In this document: piece by piece, positions 11,522 through 49,718 of the stretch
How the letters are laid out: every line of letters begins with the position of its first letter
Position numbering within the stretch: position 1 is the first letter of the stretch
From: Candidatus Kaiserbacteria bacterium CG10_big_fil_rev_8_21_14_0_10_59_10
GTDB lineage: Bacteria > Patescibacteriota > Minisyncoccia > Phycocordibacterales > UBA2100
Reading direction: 5' to 3'
Assembly (NCBI GenBank): GCA_002773285.1
Contig: PFBM01000021.1
Coordinates: 14,312-78,311, forward strand
DNA: 64,000 bases
Program-made: the position numbers and the translations under genes
Notes under the pieces: generated by a model
Told to the model about the DNA's origin: nothing
Database searches by the model: none
What the model saw: only the letters and a program-made list of their open reading frames with translations

Positions 11522-11635
11522 GGATCCCTCCTCTTCTCAGCGGCTAACGCATACATATACAACATGCGCGGAATAAAGCAATGAGTGCGTGCGTGTTCTT
11601 GTCCATATCAGCTTCGTCGTGCATCATGCTCATAT

Positions 11636-11706
11636 TCCGGGGTCGTCTAATGGTAGGACATCGCCCTTTGGAGGCGAGTATCTTGGTTCGAATCCAAGCC
11701 CCGGAA
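11636..11706 (+). tRNA. tRNA-Gln (anticodon TTG), no encoded CCA
   Basis: Cloverleaf read by eye: acceptor TCCGGGG/CCCCGGA; D-arm GTCT-AATGGTA-GGAC; anticodon stem TCGCC/GGCGA with loop CTTTGGA; variable GTAT; T-arm CTTGG-TTCGAAT-CCAAG; discriminator A. Confidence 0.8.
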
Positions 11707-11761
11707 TTGCTGCTTCATGCGCCGAACTGCGCATGCTCCGTTGAATCCGTATACTGCCAGC

Positions 11762-13187: not shown

Positions 13188-13213
13188 ACGCGCCCGCGGC
13201 GGGCGCCTTTTTG
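13188..13213 (+). terminator. Rho-independent terminator after the DoxX gene
   Basis: GC hairpin CGCGCCCGCGGCGGGCGC immediately followed by CTTTTTG. Confidence 0.5.
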
Positions 13214-13299
13214 CGGCGGGTGCGCATGGTGCTTAATCGGCACTACAGAAAGCGGCACGTATAGTGTCACATATACTCACCCGAATGGTCGGCCCATGT

Positions 13300-13632
13300 A
13301 TGAAAATAGAAATTTATTTCAATGATAAGGAACTGGAGCAGCGGGCGTCCTACGACCCGGAGGCGAGGGAGGAGCTAAGGAAGGCCGTCGCGGCAATTGC
13401 CATCTTGCACGCGCGGGATCTCGCTGAGGCGCGCGCACTGGACGAAAAATACGTGCCGCAGCTCGCAACGGCGGGGATGGGCGTGTTCGACCAGGCGTAC
13501 AATGTATACATGAAATATGGAGGCGTATTTGAAGAAACGACCGCGTTCGCGCCGTACTTCGGGTGGTGGGCGCGGCAGGCGATGATCGAGTATATCGGTT
13601 CGATACGCGCGCCAATCACGCGCGTAGAGTAA
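13300..13632 (+). CDS. Sigma-70 family N-terminal fragment (regions 1.2-2.2 only; possible pseudogene or remnant). Alternative upstream starts at 13264 and 13285.
   Basis: VFDQAYNVYMKYGGVFEETTAFAPYFGWWARQAMIEYIGSIRAPITRVE parallels the sigma-70 region 2.1/2.2 consensus ([26 protein letters not shown]...IRIPVHMVE). The ORF stops where region 2.3 would begin. Confidence 0.5.
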   Translation: MKIEIYFNDKELEQRASYDPEAREELRKAVAAIAILHARDLAEARALDEKYVPQLATAGMGVFDQAYNVYMKYGGVFEETTAFAPYFGWWARQAMIEYIGSIRAPITRVE

Positions 13633-13648: not shown

Positions 13649-14419
13649 CTAGTGTGCGAGGGTAGCGTAGACCACCAAGCGATGGTCATAGGTGCCGAGG
13701 CTGCGAACGTACGACCCCGCGCAGGTTATTACGTGCAGGTGTTTTCCGCCGTCGTTCCTGTTGAAGAGCATATCGGACGTCAGATCCGACAGACGGTGTG
13801 TCTTGGTATGCGTCACTACATACCGAAGCCGGCTGCCGTCTTCAGCTGTCACATATATCTCGTCGCCGGCCTTGACGCGGTGCAGCTCGGAAAACGCGGC
13901 ATATACGTGCGCTGCGAGCACCGCACTGCCCGTGTTGCCGGGCAGGACCCCGTACTTATACCAACCGACGTTATCGGTGCGCCCATCGGGCACATCCATG
14001 TCTCCCTTGTCGTTAATGCCGACCTGCTGGATGGGTGAATTGAGGCCGATGGCCGGCATCTGGACACGTACGGGATATGTGGAAGAGGTAGCGGATAGGG
14101 GTGACGGGCTTGAAGGAACCGGTGTCGCACTCACACCCTCCTCTACTTTTCCTTCCGGAACTGCTGCTCGTGCGACAGATAACGCGACCTCGAGCGTGCC
14201 GTTGGGTGGCGACGAGGCCCCATCCAAAGGCGGCTCGTGTGACGGAATCTCAGCGATGAATGGGGGCAGGTCTAGGGCAATGCCGGAGCGAGCATCATTG
14301 GTAGGAAGCGTTGCGCTGCCGCTACCGGGGTCAAGCAGCGCTGCGTGCGCGCTTGCACCTAGAACGGCGACGCATCCGCATGCAGCTAACAATAGTACTG
14401 TACGCATGAACCGATGCAT
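13649..14419 (-). CDS. Sortase-family transpeptidase (class E/F-like), N-terminal signal/TM
   Basis: Catalytic His in LAAHVYAAF, TLxTC-type Cys motif HVITCAGSY, conserved Arg in RLVVYA. Confidence 0.8.
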   Translation of the reverse strand: MHRFMRTVLLLAACGCVAVLGASAHAALLDPGSGSATLPTNDARSGIALDLPPFIAEIPSHEPPLDGASSPPNGTLEVALSVARAAVPEGKVEEGVSATPVPSSPSPLSATSSTYPVRVQMPAIGLNSPIQQVGINDKGDMDVPDGRTDNVGWYKYGVLPGNTGSAVLAAHVYAAFSELHRVKAGDEIYVTAEDGSRLRYVVTHTKTHRLSDLTSDMLFNRNDGGKHLHVITCAGSYVRSLGTYDHRLVVYATLAH

Positions 14420-14593
14420 TCTATGGGCACGCCATGTTCATGTCTATATCATTCATGAATCTGAAGAGCTCATGAACCTATGCGGCTACAAAAGCAGCAA
14501 AAAGGGTTTGCACTACGCGTGCGAACTCATCGATTGTCCACACCGCCTCCGGACACCTGCAGCGCTGTCGCGCACGCCGAAGCGCGCTATACT

Positions 14594-14884
14594 ATGCTGG
14601 TGGAAGATTTCTTGAAAATGGATATCTTTTTCGTAGTGACGACACTCGTCGTTGCGGTCTTAGGGCTTTTTGCCGCGATCGCCCTTTACTACGTAGTGCG
14701 CATTCTTCGCAATGTCGAGCATATATCACACAATGTCGCCGAGGAGAGTGATAACCTCCGCGCCGATATTGCACAGCTGCGCGAGCGCGTGCGCGCCGAG
14801 GGTTTTCGATTGAAGCACGTCGCCGCATTCGTTCGCTCGCTGTTCGGACGAGCGGCGCGCGTGGCAAAAAAGAAGCGCAAGTAA
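14594..14884 (+). CDS. Small single-TM protein with a C-terminal coiled-coil and basic tail (hypothetical)
   Basis: MLVEDFLKMDIFFVVTTLVVAVLGLFAAIALYYVV TM then a charged helix. TATACT -10-like box just upstream. Confidence 0.45.
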   Translation: MLVEDFLKMDIFFVVTTLVVAVLGLFAAIALYYVVRILRNVEHISHNVAEESDNLRADIAQLRERVRAEGFRLKHVAAFVRSLFGRAARVAKKKRK

Positions 14885-14958: not shown

Positions 14959-15378
14959 ATGGTTAAGAAGCGTACGCAAAAAGCGATGGGGATAGGAGCG
15001 GGTCTCGCAGCGGCAGGCGCCGCGGCCGCCGCAGGGTACTATTTTTACGTGAGCAAGGACGCGGCGAAGCATCGTCGCGTTGCCGCGAAGTGGGCGAGTG
15101 GGTTCAAGAAAGAAGTCGTCAAGCAGGCGAAGGCGGTTAAGAACGTGAATAAGACCGCCGTGCTTGCGGCGGTGGATAAGGCGACAGAAATGTATACCAG
15201 GGCACGCAAAACCGATAGAGCGGATATTATGCGCGCTGCCGAGGAGCTGAAGAAAAACTGGCAGCGCGTCGCGCAAGAAGTGCAGGCAGCTGCCGAGAAA
15301 GGGGCTCGTTCCGCTCGCAAAACGGCAAAGAAGACGGCAAAGCGAACTACACGCAAGAAAACCGCAAAGCGCCGGTAA
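14959..15378 (+). CDS. Lys/Ala-rich basic protein with N-terminal hydrophobic segment and KKTAK-type C-terminal repeats (histone H1/AlgP-like low complexity)
   Basis: GIGAGLAAAGAAAAAGYYFY hydrophobic stretch; C-terminus RKTAKKTAKRTTRKKTAKRR. Confidence 0.5.
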   Translation: MVKKRTQKAMGIGAGLAAAGAAAAAGYYFYVSKDAAKHRRVAAKWASGFKKEVVKQAKAVKNVNKTAVLAAVDKATEMYTRARKTDRADIMRAAEELKKNWQRVAQEVQAAAEKGARSARKTAKKTAKRTTRKKTAKRR

Positions 15379-15482: not shown

Positions 15483-15680
15483 TCAGTTGTCCGGCGTCGG
15501 CGAGACCGGTGGAACTGTTATGTTCGGTGCCTGCGTTTCCGGCAGGTTTACATCTATGTTCGTGCGCTCTTCCTGCTGCCCCCATAGTGGCCCTCGCAGG
15601 AACCACACGAGGGCTCCGACGACGATGATAATAAGCAACACTATGAGCACTGTGTTGACGCCTGAGTTGTCTCTGTCCAT
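15483..15680 (-). CDS. Small membrane protein (65 aa, single TM, Pro/Thr-rich tail)
   Basis: VLIVLLIIIVVGALVWFL TM helix; short ORF only. Confidence 0.35.
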   Translation of the reverse strand: MDRDNSGVNTVLIVLLIIIVVGALVWFLRGPLWGQQEERTNIDVNLPETQAPNITVPPVSPTPDN

Positions 15681-15902
15681 ATAAGAACCGCGTATCTATG
15701 ATAAATAAAAGCGGATCTGCCCCGTGCGGTGCGCGGAACCCCGCATAGTGATGGTTGCACTACAAACTGAAGACGCCATGAAGTGCGGGCGTGCGCCACA
15801 GCTGCATATATCCGCTCAATATACCTTGCACAACGCCTGCGCCTCGTTCATATTTTGCACATTAACGCGCACGCACAATGCGGTGCGTTATGCATACTTT
15901 CT

Positions 15903-16277
15903 ATGATAGAAAGCGAGCAGCGGGGTAGACGTACCATTGACCTGGATGAGATCCGGGCATGGGCGGAGGAGCGCGGGGGAGTCCCCGCGATAGCCGAGCG
16001 CGCCAAAGATGCAGAAGGCGGAGACCTGCTACGCATCGTCTTTGATGACACGGAGAAACACGTGCGGGAAGTTCCCTGGGAAGATTTCTTCGCCGTGTTC
16101 GAGGCAAATAAGCTTGTGTTTGTATACGACGCTCCCGTGGCAGGAGAGCCGTTGAGCTTGGAGCACGAATTTGCTGAGCGCACGACTGCCGACATTGAGA
16201 GTGCGGAACCACTGGAAGAGTACGGCGAAGACGATTGGCTTGATGAGGGAGAAGAAGAGCTCGAGGAGCTGCTTTGA
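15903..16277 (+). CDS. Acidic hypothetical protein (about 124 aa, Glu/Asp-rich C-terminus)
   Basis: Internal Met of ORF-track ORF 15783..16277; coding-like composition; no family assigned. Confidence 0.45.
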   Translation: MIESEQRGRRTIDLDEIRAWAEERGGVPAIAERAKDAEGGDLLRIVFDDTEKHVREVPWEDFFAVFEANKLVFVYDAPVAGEPLSLEHEFAERTTADIESAEPLEEYGEDDWLDEGEEELEELL

Positions 16278-16397: not shown

Positions 16398-16655
16398 ATG
16401 ATCCGTATGACCATGCTCAAAAGAATTATAAGCGTGTCTGCTCCTCTTGCAGCCCTTGCAGCCGCGGGTATTGCGAATGCGCAAACAGCGACACAGACCG
16501 CGACCACAGCAACGCCTACACCCGGCATTCCGGAGACCGGCGTAGGCGGGGATATGGTGATGAATCTTGTCCTATTGGGCGCAGCAGCGCTCATAGCAGG
16601 CGCAGGCGCCATGTACCTGTATGTGACGCGCTCGCGCGGGGCAGACAGGGTGTAG
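16398..16655 (+). CDS. Mini sortase substrate: signal peptide + Thr/Ala/Pro-rich 15-aa stalk + IPETG sorting motif + TM + RSRG tail
   Basis: MIRMTMLKRIISVSAPLAALAAAGIANA signal; QTATQTATTATPTPG stalk; IPETG; GVGGDMVMNLVLLGAAALIAGAGAMYLYV hydrophobic; TRSRGADRV positive tail. Sits 32 nt upstream of a sortase gene. Confidence 0.6.
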   Translation: MIRMTMLKRIISVSAPLAALAAAGIANAQTATQTATTATPTPGIPETGVGGDMVMNLVLLGAAALIAGAGAMYLYVTRSRGADRV

Positions 16656-16686: not shown

Positions 16687-17427
16687 ATGAGGATACGTAC
16701 GCACAGCAGAGAAGTGGCAGCGGCAGTTCTTGCCGCTGCCATTCTCGTAGGAGGCACGGCGGCGGTCCGCACGCTGCTGGTTCTGCCTGCCTCGGCGCTT
16801 CTCGTGCCGTACCCAACGGAAGCTCATGAGAAGAACGACGCGTTCGGGCTCATACGGTTTGTTACAGAGACAGCAACGCCGTTTAGCGGTGCGCAAGGCG
16901 CGTCGCGAGCGGAGAGACCGTTCCGGGCGCGGCCGGCTGCCTCAGAGAGGAATGGCGCATCGGAGGCGATGGGAACGGCGCAGCCCATGCGGCTCCAAAT
17001 ACCGCATATACGAGTCGACGCGCCGGTCGTGAGGGTCGGCATCAACGGGGTTGGCAATATGGCAACGCCATCGTCGTTCAGCGAGGTCGGCTGGTATCGG
17101 CATGGCCCGCGACCCGGCGAGCCGGGAAGCGCCGTCCTTGCCGGGCATGTAGACAATGCACTCGGGTTTCCCGGCGTCTTTAAGAGATTGGGTGAGTTGC
17201 GGGAAGGAGATGTGCTGTATATCACTGTGGCTGATGGCACTGCTCTGCGATTTGTTGTCGCCTCTGTGGAAACGCATCCATATAATGACGCACCTACGAA
17301 CGAGATTTTTTCGACGGGCGGCGCGCCGCGTGTCACGCTTATCACCTGTGCCGGCTCCTGGCTGCGCAGTGCCGGCACATACGATACGCGGCTCGTCGTC
17401 ACGGCATACTTGGCGGATGATAAGTAA
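16687..17427 (+). CDS. Sortase-family transpeptidase (paralog of 13649..14419)
   Basis: LAGHVDNA (His), TLITCAGSW (Cys), RLVVTA (Arg). N-terminal TM anchor. Confidence 0.8.
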   Translation: MRIRTHSREVAAAVLAAAILVGGTAAVRTLLVLPASALLVPYPTEAHEKNDAFGLIRFVTETATPFSGAQGASRAERPFRARPAASERNGASEAMGTAQPMRLQIPHIRVDAPVVRVGINGVGNMATPSSFSEVGWYRHGPRPGEPGSAVLAGHVDNALGFPGVFKRLGELREGDVLYITVADGTALRFVVASVETHPYNDAPTNEIFSTGGAPRVTLITCAGSWLRSAGTYDTRLVVTAYLADDK

Positions 17428-20102: not shown

Positions 20103-22331
20103 ATGCGACAAGTATTGATCATTGTGGCTGTTGCCGTTACAGCGGTGACCGGCGTGGTCCTACTCTTTACGCACGTGCAGGTGCGCACCGAAAGCGACGT
20201 ACTCGCACGAGACCTGGAGCAGCGCACCCGCATACTTGCGGAAAGTTTGCAGGAATCGGTCGAGCCCGCATACATCGTGCAGTCGCAGAGCGCGCTTCAG
20301 CGTATCGTCGAGCGCTTTGCCAACCGCCAACCTCTCGTCGGGGTAGCCGTGGTCGACCGCGCAGGCACGGTCGTTGCGGCGTCCGAACATGTCTCGGAGG
20401 CGGGGGTAGTCGGCGTCGTGCCGACCGTCTCAGCGCTGCAGGGTGAAAGCGGTGGGAGCTTCTTGCGTACTGCGGAAGCGACCATGTATGTGTATGCGGT
20501 GCCGCTTACGGATGAAACAGGCGAAGTGACCGCGGCGATGGTCGTCGTGCAGGACGCCTCCTACATAGACGAGCGCGCGTACAGCACATGGTGGAACAAT
20601 ATCGCCCGCCTTCTTGCGTACGTGCTGCTTTTTGGCGCTGCGGTGGCGCTTCTGGTGCGGTGGGTCGTACTGCGGCCGCTCATGGCCCTCGCTGCGACGG
20701 TCAAATCGGCGCGCACGGGACGCGGCGGCCTAAAGGCATTGGAGCCGCTGAAGCAGAACTTATTTTTCATGCCGCTTGCGCGCGAGATATCGGAGATGAC
20801 GAAGAGTCTCGGACAGGCGCGGCATGCGGCGAGCGAGGAGGCGCGCCTCCGGCTTCAAAAAATAGATACACCGTGGACGGCGGAGCGTTTGAAGGAATTT
20901 ATCCGGACGTATTTAAAAGGCCGTCCCATCTACGTAGTGTCGAATCGCGAGCCATACGCGCATACGCGACGCGGCAACGAGATACTGTGGTCCGTCCCTG
21001 CAAGCGGCATGGTGACGGCGCTTGAGCCCGTGATGGCCGCGGCGGGCGGGATGTGGATAGCGCACGGCGGCGGAGATGCGGACAGGGAGGTGACGGACGA
21101 GAGCGGCAAGGTCGCGGTACCGCCGGATGACCCGAAGTACACGCTTAAGCGCATATGGCTCGAGCCCGAAGAAATAAAAGGCCACTACGACGGCTTTTCC
21201 AACGAGGCGCTGTGGCCGCTATGCCACACCGCGCACACGCGCCCGATATTCCGCAATGAGGATTGGGCGATGTACAAGCGCGTCAATGGGAAATTTGCCG
21301 AACAGATACTCTCTGAGCTGAAAGACGTTCAGCGCCCCATCATCCTCATACAGGACTACCATTTCGCGCTCCTGCCGCAGATGCTGAAAGACGCGCGCCC
21401 CGATGCGCAGATAGGCATCTTTTGGCACATTCCCTGGCCGTCACCAGAGGCGTTCAGCATATGCCCGTGGCGCAAGGAGCTTTTGGAGGGCATGCTTGGC
21501 GCCGATATCGTGGGCTTCCATACGCAGCAGTACTGCAACAACTTTCTCGATACCGTAGGCAAGGAGATAGAATCACTCATCGATTTCGAACAGTTCGCCG
21601 TGACGCGCGACGACCACGTGTCGTACATCAAGCCATTTCCCATATCGATAGCATTCACGAACGGCGCCGAACGCGACGAGGCCGACAAGCCCGATAAAAA
21701 GGTGCTCTCCGTTCTCGGCATAAAGACCGAGCGATTCGGGCTAGGCGTCGACCGAATGGATTATACGAAAGGCATTCTTGAGCGCTTTAAGGCCATTGAA
21801 TTTTTGCTCGAGAAGCATACGAAGTACAGAGAGAAGTTCACGTTCCTGCAGATCGCGCCACCTTCGCGCGAGGGTGTCGAGAAATACCGAGAATACGGCG
21901 CTGCAGTGAAGCAGGAAGCCGATCGCATCAACAAGCGTTTCGGCAAGAACGGCTGGCGACCCATCGTTCTCGAGACGCGGCACTACACCCACAGCGAGCT
22001 CGAACCGCTCTACCGGCTCGCGGACGTGTGCGTCGTAACCTCGCTGCACGACGGCATGAACCTTGTCGCCAAGGAGTTCGTCGCCGCCCGCGACGACGAA
22101 TCAGGCGTGCTGGTGCTCTCGCAGTTCACGGGCGCCGCCCGTACGCTCAAAGGTGCGCTCCTTGTCAATCCATATAGCGCGGAGGAAACCGCAGAGGCGG
22201 TGCATAAGGCCCTCTCCATGTCGCCGACCGAGCAGTACCGGCGCATGCGCGCCATGCGCAATACGATCAAGGACTACAACGTATACCGCTGGTCCGCGGA
22301 GCTCATTAAAGCGGTCGCCAGCATCGCGTAA
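20103..22331 (+). CDS. otsA: Alpha,alpha-trehalose-phosphate synthase (GT20) fused to an N-terminal TM / periplasmic sensor-like domain / TM / HAMP-like linker
   Basis: GT20 core from IYVVSNREPYAH...GGLV.ALEPV...WIAHGGG...FSNEALWPLCH to the C-terminus. N-terminal 300 aa: TM1 LIIVAVAVTAVTGVVLLF, about 190-aa extracytoplasmic domain, TM2 LLAYVLLFGAAVALLVRWVVL, then HAMP-like RPLMALAATVKSARTGRGGLKALEPL...AREISEMTKSL. Confidence 0.85.
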   Translation: MRQVLIIVAVAVTAVTGVVLLFTHVQVRTESDVLARDLEQRTRILAESLQESVEPAYIVQSQSALQRIVERFANRQPLVGVAVVDRAGTVVAASEHVSEAGVVGVVPTVSALQGESGGSFLRTAEATMYVYAVPLTDETGEVTAAMVVVQDASYIDERAYSTWWNNIARLLAYVLLFGAAVALLVRWVVLRPLMALAATVKSARTGRGGLKALEPLKQNLFFMPLAREISEMTKSLGQARHAASEEARLRLQKIDTPWTAERLKEFIRTYLKGRPIYVVSNREPYAHTRRGNEILWSVPASGMVTALEPVMAAAGGMWIAHGGGDADREVTDESGKVAVPPDDPKYTLKRIWLEPEEIKGHYDGFSNEALWPLCHTAHTRPIFRNEDWAMYKRVNGKFAEQILSELKDVQRPIILIQDYHFALLPQMLKDARPDAQIGIFWHIPWPSPEAFSICPWRKELLEGMLGADIVGFHTQQYCNNFLDTVGKEIESLIDFEQFAVTRDDHVSYIKPFPISIAFTNGAERDEADKPDKKVLSVLGIKTERFGLGVDRMDYTKGILERFKAIEFLLEKHTKYREKFTFLQIAPPSREGVEKYREYGAAVKQEADRINKRFGKNGWRPIVLETRHYTHSELEPLYRLADVCVVTSLHDGMNLVAKEFVAARDDESGVLVLSQFTGAARTLKGALLVNPYSAEETAEAVHKALSMSPTEQYRRMRAMRNTIKDYNVYRWSAELIKAVASIA

Positions 22332-22333
22332 CC

Positions 22334-23107
22334 ATGTTGAGCGCCGCGCGGCACATCGATGAAATAGCGAGGCGCGTGAGGCGTGCGGGCGGCGCACTCT
22401 TGTTCCTTGATTTTGACGGCACGCTTGCGGAGATCGCTACGACGCCGGAGTCCGCGCGCATGAGCGCCCGAACGCGGCGCGCGCTCAAGGCGTGCGTTGC
22501 GCGATACCGCGTTGCAGTCATTAGCGGGCGGGCGCTCGCGGACGTCCGCAGAAAGGTGGGTATGCGCACGGTGGCCTACGTCGGCGGCCACGGAACGGAA
22601 TACAGCATTGGCCGTCTGCGGGGCGTGTCGGGACTGCCTGCCGCTCTTCGCGCGTCACTCCGTGACGCGGCACGGCGCTTTCTGCCATTGTGCAAGGAAT
22701 ACCCGGGATTGCGCATCGAGCGTAAACCTTCGTCCGTTTCGGTACACTACCGCCGGCTGGAGCCGCGCGCGCTCCGCTCATTCGCGCGAATAGCGCGGCG
22801 GCTATGCACGGATATAGCGGCCGAAGGGTCGTTACGTATTATGTTCGGGAAAAGGGTCCTTGAATTTATGCCCGCTATCGGATTTGGGAAAGGGCATGCA
22901 GTGGGCCTCTTGCGGCGCGAGTTGGACCCTCGCCGCACACTGCCGGTCATATATATCGGGGACGATACCACGGACGAGGAGGCATTTCGCGCACTTCCGC
23001 GCGAGATTACCGTACGCGTGGGCGTGCGCCGCAGCAGCGCCGCACGGTACGTTCTCCGCAGGCGCGCCGACGTCGACCTGCTTCTGGAGCGGCTTGCCAC
23101 CTTGTAG
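22334..23107 (+). CDS. otsB: Trehalose-6-phosphate phosphatase (HAD-IIB)
   Basis: LLFLDFDGTLAEIATTPESA (DxDGT motif I); GKGHAVGLL; IYIGDDTTDEEAF (motif IV). Confidence 0.8.
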   Translation: MLSAARHIDEIARRVRRAGGALLFLDFDGTLAEIATTPESARMSARTRRALKACVARYRVAVISGRALADVRRKVGMRTVAYVGGHGTEYSIGRLRGVSGLPAALRASLRDAARRFLPLCKEYPGLRIERKPSSVSVHYRRLEPRALRSFARIARRLCTDIAAEGSLRIMFGKRVLEFMPAIGFGKGHAVGLLRRELDPRRTLPVIYIGDDTTDEEAFRALPREITVRVGVRRSSAARYVLRRRADVDLLLERLATL

Positions 23108-46529: not shown

Positions 46530-47141
46530 TCAGCGCCTGTTCTCGAGCGCGCTTTTGAGTGTCTCGGCATCCGCATACTCCAACTCGCTGCCCGTCGAAA
46601 GGCCCCGCCCGAGCATCGTTATCTTCCATCCGTGCCGCGCCGCAAGCGCGGCAAGCGCGTCGCGGACATGAATGGCCGTGTAGTCGCCTTCTGGATTCGC
46701 CGGCAGGGCTAGAATGACCTCACGCAGGCCTGCCGATGCGCGCTCCTGTGCACGCGAGAGGAGTTCGCGCTCGCGCAGCGCCTTGGCCTTCTCGCTCGCA
46801 AGGGAGATGGTCCCTCCGAGCACGAAGTAATGGCCGCGATACGTGCCACTTCGCTCCAGGGCGGCGAGGTCCGCGTCGCTGGAGACCACGGCAAGCATCG
46901 ACGCGTCGCGTGCGGGATCGGCGCATAGCGCGCAGAGCCCCTTCGCGCCGGCGTGGTAGCGCATGCACGCATCGCACTGGTTGACGGTTGCGCCGAGTGC
47001 GCGTATCGAGTCGGCCAATTCGCGCCGCATAGAAGGCGAAGAGCGCAGCAAGAATTGCACGAACCGGTGCGCCTGGCGGGGTCCGATGCCGGGAAAGCGC
47101 GCAAACAACGTCGCTAACTTATCGAGCGCATCCATGTGCAT
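46530..47141 (-). CDS. recR: Recombination protein RecR
   Basis: LATLFARFPGIGPRQAHRFVQFLL (HhH); CDACMRY...C zinc finger; Toprim. Confidence 0.85.
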   Translation of the reverse strand: MHMDALDKLATLFARFPGIGPRQAHRFVQFLLRSSPSMRRELADSIRALGATVNQCDACMRYHAGAKGLCALCADPARDASMLAVVSSDADLAALERSGTYRGHYFVLGGTISLASEKAKALRERELLSRAQERASAGLREVILALPANPEGDYTAIHVRDALAALAARHGWKITMLGRGLSTGSELEYADAETLKSALENRR

Positions 47142-48517
47142 TAAAAGGGCTGCTCCACCTCCGCCTCTGGAGTAAAGTCGCCGAAATCGCTTTTCTCGAG
47201 TGAAATGAACGTGGTTTTCTCCTCATCAAAGCGAAGGTCAATTTTGCCAACCGGGCCGTTGCGATGCTTCTCGACGAGTATTTCCGCAATGCCCGTGCGT
47301 TCGCCTCCGTCCTGCATCTTATCCTCGCGATGAATGAACATGACGACATCGGCATCCTGCTCTATTGAGCCCGAGTCGCGCAGGTCGGAGAGGCGCGGCT
47401 TTCCGCGCCGCTGCTCGACGGCGCGCGACAGCTGCGAAAGTGCAAGGACCGGCACGTCCAGCTCGCGCGCCATCGCCTTAAGTGAACGGGAGATTTCCGT
47501 CACCTGCTGTACGAGCGAATCGGACGAGCGGGTGGTTGAAGGCGTAATGAGCTGCAAGTAATCCACGATGACGAGGCCGAGGCCCTTTTCCATTTTGAGC
47601 CGTCGTGCGACAGAGCGCATCGTGAGTACCGTTGAGGACGGCTTATCATCGATAAATATTGGCGCGTCGGAAAGCGTCGCAATGGCGTGCTGCAGACGCT
47701 CGTACTCATCATCTTTAGATATCTTGCCCGTGCGCAGCCGCCATGAATTGACGCGGGCCTCTGCGGCGAGCATGCGGTCAACCAGCTGCTGGGAACTCAT
47801 CTCGAGCGAGAAAATGCCCACCGCCGTGTTGTGTTTGGTCGCGCTCTGACGCGCGATGTCGAGCGCGAGGGCGGTTTTACCCATGGAAGGGCGGGCAGCG
47901 AGTATGACAAGGTCCGAGCGCTGCAGTCCTGCGAGCAAGTTGTCGAGCTGTGGGAAGCCCGTCGGTACGCCGCGTATCGAACCGTCATGCTGCTGCAGCT
48001 GCTCCAAACGCTCCCACGCGTCGCTGAGTGACTCCTTGATGGTAGAGAATGTCCGCAGGCTCGGCGCGTTCGCGACGGCGAACACCGCTTGCTGCGCCTC
48101 ATCAAGTATCTGTTCTATCTCTCTATCCTCGGCAAACCCGAGTTCGGCGATGCGCCCAGCGACGTCAATAAGAGAGCGCAGTACGTACTTCGACTGCACG
48201 TTCTCCGCATAGTGGCGCGCGCTACCCGGAGAAGCCGCGGTAGACACCAATTCAGACAGGTATGCGCCGCCGCCGATACCCGCAAGCTGCTTTCGTTCCT
48301 TCAGTTTGCCCGAAAGCGTCACGAGGTCGATCGGCTCGCCCTTGCCGTGGAGCGCGAGCATCGCGTCGAAGATAGTGCGGTGCTTGCCTGCATAGAATGA
48401 ATCAACGCCGACGACGTCCGCGACCTCGAACATCGCATTCGGGTTAAGCATGAGGGCGCCGAGGAGCGCGCGCTCCATATCAACATCCTGCGGTGGGACT
48501 CGAGCGCTTTGTGCCAT
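47141..48517 (-). CDS. dnaB: Replicative DNA helicase DnaB
   Basis: PQDVDMERALLGALMLNPNAMFEV N-domain; RecA-like core (ILAARPSMGKTALAL; Walker B VIVDYLQLI). Confidence 0.9.
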   Translation of the reverse strand: MAQSARVPPQDVDMERALLGALMLNPNAMFEVADVVGVDSFYAGKHRTIFDAMLALHGKGEPIDLVTLSGKLKERKQLAGIGGGAYLSELVSTAASPGSARHYAENVQSKYVLRSLIDVAGRIAELGFAEDREIEQILDEAQQAVFAVANAPSLRTFSTIKESLSDAWERLEQLQQHDGSIRGVPTGFPQLDNLLAGLQRSDLVILAARPSMGKTALALDIARQSATKHNTAVGIFSLEMSSQQLVDRMLAAEARVNSWRLRTGKISKDDEYERLQHAIATLSDAPIFIDDKPSSTVLTMRSVARRLKMEKGLGLVIVDYLQLITPSTTRSSDSLVQQVTEISRSLKAMARELDVPVLALSQLSRAVEQRRGKPRLSDLRDSGSIEQDADVVMFIHREDKMQDGGERTGIAEILVEKHRNGPVGKIDLRFDEEKTTFISLEKSDFGDFTPEAEVEQPF

Positions 48518-48695: not shown

Positions 48696-49718
48696 ATGCT
48701 TCAATTCACTACGCGCAGCGTCACGAAAGAGCTCCTTTCCTCTCTGCCTGAACGCTCACGGCGAGTCGTTGCAGAGCGTTTTGGCCTCGGCACGAGCGCG
48801 CGGCGGCGCACGCTGGAGGCAATTGGCAAGGAGTATGGGGTGACACGGGAGCGCATACGCCAGATAGAGAACCACTCCCTCGCAATGGTCCGAGAATCGG
48901 AGGCATACGGCCGCAACATGCACGCGATCGATGACCTCAAGCGCGCCGTGCATGAGCTCGGCAGCATCGTATCCGAGACGGCTGCTCTGGCCGCTCTCGC
49001 TACGTCGGAGGCCGAACGCAACCATGTGCTCTTTCTTCTCACGGTAGGGCACCACTTCGAGCACAGGCCGGATAATCCCGACTTTCACGCACGCTGGCAC
49101 GTGGACCCGGCGCTTGCCGAGGCGGTAGAGCGCTCGCTTTCGCGCTTGCATGAGGAGCTGAGCGCCGAGCGGCTCGTTCCAGAGAGTGATTTTGTGCAGC
49201 AGTTCGTACGCATTCTGAAAGAGGAGGGTGTGCGTGCACGTTCCGAAGAGGCGCCGTCTCGCTGGCTTGCCATTGCCAAGCGTATTGCGCGCAACCCGCT
49301 TGGTGAGTGGGGTAGGAGCGATTCGCCGCACGTGCGCATCAAGAACACGCGTGACTTTGCGTACCTCACACTGAAGCGTCACGGCTCACCCATGCACTTT
49401 ACCGAAGTGGCGAAGGGCATTCGCGAGCTGTTCGATAGGAACGCGCACCCCGCAACAACGCACAATGAACTTATTAAGGACAGCCGATTTGTGTTGGTCG
49501 GGCGCGGCCTGTACGCCCTTAAGGAATGGGGGTACGCGCCCGGCGTCGTGCGCGAGGTCATCAAGAACATCATCGCGGAAGAGGGTCCGCTGTTGCGCGA
49601 AGACATAATCGAGCGTGTGAAGCGCGAGCGCTACGTCAAAGACGCAACTATTGCCGTGAATCTCCAGAGCGACGCCTTCACGCGCGGCGCGGACGGCCGC
49701 TACAGCATCGCCTCATAG
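48696..49718 (+). CDS. Protein with an N-terminal sigma-70 region-4-like HTH domain fused to an uncharacterised C-terminal domain of about 270 aa
   Basis: LSSLPERSRRVVAERFGLGTSARRRTLEAIGKEYGVTRERIRQIENHSLAMVR is a close match to sigma-70 region 4.2. The rest is unassigned. Confidence 0.6.
   Translation: MLQFTTRSVTKELLSSLPERSRRVVAERFGLGTSARRRTLEAIGKEYGVTRERIRQIENHSLAMVRESEAYGRNMHAIDDLKRAVHELGSIVSETAALAALATSEAERNHVLFLLTVGHHFEHRPDNPDFHARWHVDPALAEAVERSLSRLHEELSAERLVPESDFVQQFVRILKEEGVRARSEEAPSRWLAIAKRIARNPLGEWGRSDSPHVRIKNTRDFAYLTLKRHGSPMHFTEVAKGIRELFDRNAHPATTHNELIKDSRFVLVGRGLYALKEWGYAPGVVREVIKNIIAEEGPLLREDIIERVKRERYVKDATIAVNLQSDAFTRGADGRYSIAS

Follow-up and report, generated by a model that had tools for sequence, protein, structure and literature searches.

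The gene described here lies on the forward strand of a 64-kb stretch of DNA from a Candidatus Kaiserbacteria genome (hereafter, the window; G+C 58.8%). The mechanical open reading frame (ORF) covers 13264..13632 (+) and ends in ...FAPYFGWWARQAMIEYIGSIRAPITRVE*, just as the sequence-only reading of this DNA had it. The probable coding range of the encoded sigma2 protein, P0001, is shorter, at 13300..13632 (+) with the stop codon included (110 aa); we refer to the gene and its relatives as mini-sigma2. ATG 13300 is the likely translation start. It is favoured over GTG 13264 because the same 110-aa gene call is recorded in both the JGI and the ENA data, because the N-termini of the homologues start at the equivalent position, and because the GTG falls inside a putative -10 hexamer; ATG 13285 is possibly an alternative start. 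The hexamer, TATAGT, overlaps the GTG, the first codon of the mechanical ORF, and belongs to a promoter-like site at 13237..13265 (+) (TCGGCA-17 nt-TATAGT; 9/12 consensus matches), 34 nt 5′ of ATG 13300. By consensus match only, one such site was found, with 0.4 expected. Further upstream, a terminator-like hairpin at 13190..13215 (+), formed by 7 G-C pairs (13190-13206) and followed by a T run, ends the DoxX gene and is predicted to insulate mini-sigma2 from its transcription. With this hairpin and the promoter-like site upstream, mini-sigma2 looks like its own transcription unit.

Downstream, the mini-sigma2 stop codon is separated by 17 bases from a convergent sortase gene (13649..14419, -; Pfam Sortase, E=7e-21), which bears out the opposite-strand sortase of the earlier reading. 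Through the whole gene, stop codon included, the JGI contig is identical to an ENA contig of 800 bases that spans mini-sigma2. Within the 64-kb window, no base-composition anomaly was seen at mini-sigma2 and no recombinase was found. A tRNA-Gln(ttg) gene is located at 11635..11707 (+), just 5′ of truB, and between it and mini-sigma2 we saw neither an integrase nor a repeat hinting at an island.

Other genes of the window deserve a brief description. Where the neighbouring genes have named homologues, these point to Paceibacterota (Parcubacteria), close to Kaiserbacteria. The sortase gene at 13649..14419 (-) and a second sortase-domain gene at 16687..17427 (+) bracket a run of small ORFs (14480-14884, 14959-15378, 15483-15680, 15783-16277 and 16398-16655) with no significant family match; the last of them starts with a signal-peptide-like segment. 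The two sortases and the small ORFs may form a sortase-substrate cluster. This small-genome bacterium has adjacent genes for a trehalose-6-phosphate synthase (Glyco_transf_20) and a trehalose phosphatase at ~20103..23107 (+), according to the Pfam tags of the identical JGI contig (L005).

Homology to sigma domain 2 and conserved residues

As a single sequence, P0001 had no match in Pfam, a marginal one in NCBIfam (sigma70-ECF, E=0.34), and no sigma factor came up for it in the PDB with phmmer. At a threshold of E<=1e-3, an exhaustive HMMER search covering 1.84 billion representatives defined the mini-sigma2 family as 51 cluster representatives, nearly all 100-124 aa long. A 48-sequence family alignment (A2) was used for the profile searches, the conservation counts and the fold model. 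The 48-member profile gave 178 matches to the PDB at E<=1 (best E=1.3e-5); 59 of 60 among the matches listed were sigma factors, and in all listed sigma matches profile positions 76-103 aligned with E. coli sigma70 419-446. In hhalign, the family matched E. coli RpoS (residues 50-170) with 94.6% probability (E=7e-8, 80 columns) and E. coli RpoD (360-465) with 94.6% probability (E=1e-8, 95 columns). Individual members touched the NCBIfam models sigma70-ECF (28/48) and RpoD_Cterm (23/48, best E=6.5e-6), Pfam Sigma70_r2 (15/48) and the phage sigma family phrog_351 (11/48). All of these matches fell below the curated cut-offs, and no Pfam, NCBIfam or PHROG model captures the family above threshold. 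The distant member P0051 aligned over 83% of its length with a full-length cyanobacterial (Leptolyngbya) SigD. The AlphaFold model computed from 48 sequences reached pLDDT 90.1 and pTM 0.81, whereas that from two sequences only was poor (pLDDT 58.8); in Foldseek, all 50 PDB matches listed were sigma-factor chains or sigma-derived models. On these comparisons, we regard the homology of the family to sigma-70 region 2 as real, and the protein is confidently predicted to adopt the sigma2 fold.

The family is rare and patchy, and is distributed among Paceibacterota/Parcubacteria-type bacteria and mobile elements. A word-indexed homologue search with the family alignment retrieved 7 proteins only, and a genome scan with 8 close sequences found two genomes only. 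Where members are named, they are annotated as "hypothetical protein", and the literature searched for stand-alone or split sigma2 proteins contained no description of the family. One candidate, P0025 (1205 aa), was excluded as spurious. It is a long repetitive protein, in which six copies of a FDKAWNHWIKHGKDEGR-like repeat matched a two-sequence profile, and the repeated FDKAWNHWIK motif was the sole basis of the match.

The AlphaFold model and the hhalign alignments place the equivalent of region 2.1 (sigma70 ~374-396) in a long helix of residues 20-44 (13357..13431, +) and that of region 2.2 (sigma70 D403-E420) in a helix of residues 49-72 (13444..13515, +). In sigma factors, the region 2.2 helix is the element that binds the β′ clamp helices. 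Its counterpart in the family carries the motif E-L-x-x-x-G-M-x-x-F-D-x-A-F-x-x-Y, which aligned against DLIQEGNIGLMKAVDKF of sigma70. Compared with sigma70 421-426, the following loop (residues 73-82; 13516..13545, +) contains ~5 additional residues specific to the family; its sequence varies, and it was modelled with lower pLDDT. The helix of residues 83-103 (13546..13608, +) is equivalent to regions 2.3 and 2.4 (sigma70 F427-A447), with F83, Y86, W89, W90, R92 and Q93 corresponding to sigma70 F427, Y430, W433, W434, R436 and Q437; the two tryptophans of "WWIRQ" in E. coli RpoD are W433 and W434. Region 2.3 is defined by the F427-W434 aromatics, and the adjacent region 2.4 includes Q437 and is responsible for recognising -12 (PMC4496690). 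In tblastn, sigma70 427-458 aligned with 13546-13629, that is, up to and including the tail IRAPITRVE (residues 102-110; 13603..13629, +), which resembles sigma70 I450-E458 (IRIPVHMIE) at the end of sigma2. The tail was modelled with low confidence and has a counterpart in some family members only (PLRxIP tails in P0041, P0042, P0044 and P0053); most members end sooner. Region 1.2 is absent. Judged from these alignments, P0001 is a complete sigma domain 2 (regions 2.1-2.4, ~105 aa). It ends after region 2.3/2.4, and therefore at the sigma2/sigma3 boundary, since the tail aligns with sigma70 450-458. The sequence-only reading had labelled the protein as regions 1.2-2.2, terminating before 2.3/2.4. 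That label was mistaken, as FxxYxxWWxRQA aligns to F427-Q437, i.e. region 2.3 and the start of 2.4, and the regions thought to be missing hold the best-conserved residues.

Equivalents of F427 and Y430 are present in all 48 aligned members, followed by W433 (46/48), W434 (45/48), R436 (43/48) and Q437 (38/48). The melting and recognition residues of regions 2.3/2.4 are thus kept in 38-48 of the 48 sequences, except for the -12 readers T440 and R441, which are not conserved. In sigma70, Y430 and W433 serve to flip -11A and to hold the upstream fork; the residue that reads -12 is Q437 (PMC4496690). The position of F419 is occupied by Tyr or Phe in 48/48, and L404 and G408 are each kept in 42/48. 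Neither the basic residues K414/K418 nor the pocket residues E420/R423 are conserved. Positions specific to the family are M60 (36/48), F63 (45/48) and D64 (36/48). Acidic residues of the region-2.2-like helix comprise E54 (31/48) and Asp or Glu at position 64 (42/48), and from helical periodicity E54 and D64 should share one helix face. The polar clamp-helix contacts of sigma70 are only partly kept, with Q406 variable, E407 replaced by a hydrophobic residue and N409 by Met; these residues are less conserved in the family than the DNA face.

An ORF that ends within sigma-like sequence gives the superficial impression of a decaying pseudogene, or of a frameshifted or mis-assembled piece of a full-length sigma factor, and the lack of a Pfam match for the single sequence points the same way. 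The length is, however, kept family-wide, with the end about 10-28 residues past the WW pair (median 16.5, minimum 10), and the C-terminus of the closest homologue, P0002 (53% identity), comes even earlier than that of P0001. The agreement of the JGI and the 800-base ENA contigs over the gene and its stop codon speaks against the frameshift or sequencing error for which the sequence-only reading had allowed. Searching with RpoD and RpoS by tblastn, we detected no sigma3/4 remnant downstream of the gene in any frame, where the sortase occupies the other strand, and the sole other sigma-like segment in the window was a region 4 at 48714-48893. Given the family-wide length, the lack of sigma3/4 remnants and the strong constraint on functional residues, we reject a decaying pseudogene and consider this whole explanation extremely improbable. 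The other proposal of that reading, a stand-alone mini-sigma, survives as an entity, in view of the same-length family and the sigma2 fold, but without its premise of a protein devoid of regions 2.3/2.4.

Genomic loci and candidate partners

The genomic context was compared at 11 distinct loci, 5 chromosomal and 6 on integrative or conjugative mobile elements. The chromosomal copies lie amid housekeeping genes, in the window, L001/L008 (Adlerbacteria), L007 (Paceibacterota), L009 (Parcubacteria, "hypothetical protein") and L023. The mobile-element copies are those of L012, L013/14, L018-20, L021, L024 and L025. On 5/6 of the latter, a large serine recombinase is encoded within a few kb of mini-sigma2, the regions that hold both genes spanning 8001-10449 in L012, 8001-9890 in L013, 7001-11118 in L021, 7001-10729 in L024 and 258-7303 in L018. 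The mobile-element loci also carry ArdC, TrwB-type coupling proteins, Rep or relaxase genes, and Xre regulators. In L012, L013 and L024 the recombinase gene is convergent with mini-sigma2 and is the next or next-but-one gene, and in L021 it is located behind a UvrD gene. After the recombinase comes a syntenic block of a small ORF, an unknown protein of 418-459 aa and a RuvC-like protein (156-182 aa). The L018 recombinase is found at the opposite end of a ~7-kb island from mini-sigma2, meaning that the two genes would adjoin in the excised circle. The L018 element is integrated in a Paceibacterota genome. ParB and RelA from L018 share 60-63% identity with their counterparts in the window.

All-against-all BLAST of the neighbours found no conserved partner gene; only mobile-element genes (serine recombinase, ArdC, RuvC-like) and a zeta-toxin-like gene were common. 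No neighbour was common among the chromosomal loci except this zeta-toxin-like gene, which lies near two of them. It encodes a zeta-toxin/AAA_33-type kinase (L001 3222-3935 and L007 2989-3705; 45% identical), 1-3 kb from mini-sigma2, and the two chromosomal contexts, both in candidate-phyla-radiation bacteria, are otherwise unrelated. None of the 11 distinct loci has an adjacent sigma4-bearing gene, and a Pfam scan of the unannotated neighbours found none either. Neither did we find family members in viral contigs (IMG/VR), phage genomes or known plasmids.

The upstream regions of 9 loci showed no common promoter motif on reading. At L013 (7980-8003), L021 (6975-7003) and L012 (7975-8003), a -10-like hexamer was observed ~7-15 nt 5′ of the mini-sigma2 ATG; the example from L013, TGCTAGAAT, ends 7 nt 5′ of the ATG. 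No Shine-Dalgarno sequence was evident at these three mobile-element loci. The arrangement suggests that several mobile-element mini-sigma2 transcripts are leaderless or have a very short leader.

The region 4 found elsewhere in the window belongs to a gene at 48696..49718 (+), whose product combines Sigma70_r4 (E=1.7e-12, residues 13-66) with a following HARE-HTH domain and a weak DUF3320 match. A region-4 HTH fused to another domain had already been noticed at this place, and the domain search confirmed it. The delta subunits of RNA polymerase have the HARE-HTH fold in their N-terminal domain. The sigma4+HARE-HTH protein is represented by at least 7970 database clusters; among the matches listed, identity is 64-70% over proteins of ~340 aa from Paceibacterota/Kaiserbacteria, and some homologues are named "sigma factor-like helix-turn-helix DNA-binding protein". 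By these counts it is a lineage-wide conserved protein and exceeds the mini-sigma2 family in frequency by orders of magnitude. It appears to be an RNA polymerase-associated factor that awaits characterisation. It is not a dedicated partner of mini-sigma2, although an opportunistic partnership is possible. The idea that sigma-factor domains have been redistributed in this genome is unsupported, with at least 7970 clusters on one side, 51 representatives on the other, and 35 kb between the two genes. Divergent from the sigma4+HARE-HTH gene is an ORF at 47141..48517 that, by translation only, encodes a DnaB-like helicase.

Known sigma2-only proteins and the proposed function

In B. subtilis, rsoA and sigO are adjacent genes. 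SigO obtains sigma2 in trans from RsoA (PMC7826278, PMC10028694), and both proteins are required at PoxdC (PMC10028694). Like RsoA, mini-sigma2 is a small, free-standing protein with similarity to sigma region 2 and no sigma4. It differs in that the neighbouring cognate sigma4 subunit of the SigO-RsoA type is missing at all 11 distinct loci, and in its hosts, which are Paceibacterota and mobile elements rather than Firmicutes. No RsoA-named model was present among the NCBIfam matches, and it is by gene context and hosts that the family is set apart from RsoA.

In T4 gp55, a late-promoter specificity factor, the sigmaR2 domain alone binds the clamp helices, for which it uses acidic residues of H3, and reads an element similar to -10 (PMC7892883). 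Besides this domain, gp55 has a helix-loop-helix (HLH; H4/H5 extension) critical for transcription and, at its C-terminus, a motif that binds the sliding clamp; gp33 and gp45 act together with it (PMC7892883). Mini-sigma2 shares the four-helix domain of sigmaR2 homology, at a sequence identity of 8% with gp55. Unlike gp55, it has neither an HLH nor a sliding-clamp-binding motif, since in the family a median of 16.5 residues follow WW and the C-termini are short and unconserved; the model ends at helix 83-103 and a short tail. Moreover, gp55 is phage-encoded along with gp33/gp45, whereas relatives of mini-sigma2 are absent from the IMG/VR contigs and phage genomes searched, and the PHROG matches of the family are to the generic sigma family phrog_351 only. 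A further difference, judged by the models matched (RpoD_Cterm in 23/48), is that mini-sigma2 keeps a group-1/2-like region 2.3 motif. The family thus fails defining features of both RsoA (adjacent sigma4) and gp55 (HLH, clamp-binding motif, phage context).

With the group 1/2 sigma factors (RpoD/SigA, RpoS, SigD), mini-sigma2 shares the fold and the helix order, and (Y)KFSTYxxWWxRQxI occurs nearly verbatim in some members. In contrast to them, it has no region 1.1/1.2, no non-conserved insertion, no sigma3 and no sigma4, and it contains the 5-residue loop insertion between regions 2.2 and 2.3. As compared with canonical sigma-70 factors (Sigma70_r2 plus Sigma70_r4, TIGR02937), sigma2 homology is present, but P0001 ends at the equivalent of sigma70 458 and the region 4 HTH, responsible for -35 recognition and β-flap binding, is not on the same polypeptide. 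Nor does the family reach the curated threshold of Pfam Sigma70_r2 or that of any NCBIfam sigma model it matched.

Contact with the β′ clamp helices and recognition of the -10 element are the tasks of region 2 in all sigma factors (PMC7892883). For mini-sigma2 we favour, with moderate confidence, a trans-acting module that would bind RNA polymerase and engage the -10 element, as suggested by the conserved melting residues, the acidic region-2.2-like helix and the precedents of gp55 and RsoA. The region-2.2-like helix, through its acidic face (E54, D64), would dock on the β′ clamp helices of the core enzyme, and the surface formed by Y86, W89, W90, R92 and Q93 would capture a -10-like element as single-stranded non-template DNA. 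Mini-sigma2 would then be a minimal subunit that reads and melts the -10 element in trans. Efficient autonomous initiation is doubtful, as the protein has no sigma3.2, HLH or sigma-finger element and no sigma4; for the same reason, help from a partner or activator encoded elsewhere would probably be needed, or the protein would serve special promoters only. Its net effect could alternatively be displacement of the housekeeping sigma. Several observations weigh against a trans-acting module, namely the partial retention of the clamp-helix polar residues (Q406, E407, N409), the lack of conservation at T440/R441, K414/K418 and E420/R423, the absence of an HLH or sigma-finger element, on which gp55 function depends (PMC7892883), the lack of an adjacent sigma4 partner at the 11 distinct loci and of a shared upstream motif at 9 loci, and the rare and patchy distribution of the family.

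Doubtful autonomous initiation and the lack of an adjacent partner gene would also suit a sigma mimic that occupies the sigma2 site on the β′ clamp helices without initiating, leaving fewer holoenzymes with the housekeeping sigma. Such a competitor could provide host shut-down or copy control for the mobile elements and a global brake in the case of the chromosomal copies. The sigma2 fold with its conserved region-2.2-like helix, and the frequent occurrence on mobile elements, a common source of host-takeover factors, are compatible with this role. Nevertheless, a decoy needs the core-binding face alone, yet the residues most conserved are the DNA-melting aromatics and R436/Q437, and the clamp-helix polar residues are less conserved than the DNA face. 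To our knowledge, ECF sigma factors do not keep the region 2.3 aromatics and R436/Q437; the fold does not require the aromatics, and their invariance argues against a pure decoy. The presence and superior conservation of regions 2.3/2.4 likewise weaken a pure core-binding decoy and favour contact with promoter DNA, and we hold the competitor, including its proposed roles, to be the less probable reading. The sigma2 fold might also have been re-used outside transcription, for instance in a single-stranded-DNA-binding protein or a recombinase accessory such as a recombination directionality factor serving the serine-recombinase elements, with the chromosomal copies as remnants. A large serine recombinase is encoded within a few kb at 5/11 distinct loci, adjoining or next-but-one and convergent in three of them (L012, L013, L024), and the directionality factors of serine integrases are small proteins that are evolutionarily unrelated to one another. 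Still, a nearby recombinase is lacking in the window and at four other loci, conservation falls precisely on the residues with which sigma meets the -10 element and the polymerase, and no sigma-fold directionality factor is known to us. We therefore regard re-use as unlikely.

A more specific form of the trans-acting module can be put forward only tentatively. The free-standing sigma2 class may be a true trans-acting subunit for -10 recognition and melting, carried on serine-recombinase elements and domesticated in some Paceibacterota, which would work either as a split sigma with an unlinked partner, possibly the sigma4+HARE-HTH protein, or by -10-only initiation.

Sigma factors are normally defined by sigma2 and sigma4 on one chain, and the only two well-studied exceptions that we know of are RsoA and T4 gp55. 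Proteins with sigma2 only are thus a known, though rare, kind, whereas the mini-sigma2 family itself is unnamed and unannotated. It would be a third, independent sigma2-only family, with group-1-type DNA-melting residues intact, and some 50 clusters of "hypothetical protein" would gain an annotation. Its hosts include ultra-small Parcubacteria-type bacteria and mobile elements. If active on RNA polymerase, mini-sigma2 would offer a natural minimal system in which to learn how much of a sigma factor suffices for promoter opening, and a route by which mobile elements could redirect or throttle host transcription. Should the split-sigma or the -10-only reading prove true, it would represent a minimal sigma in genome-reduced bacteria.
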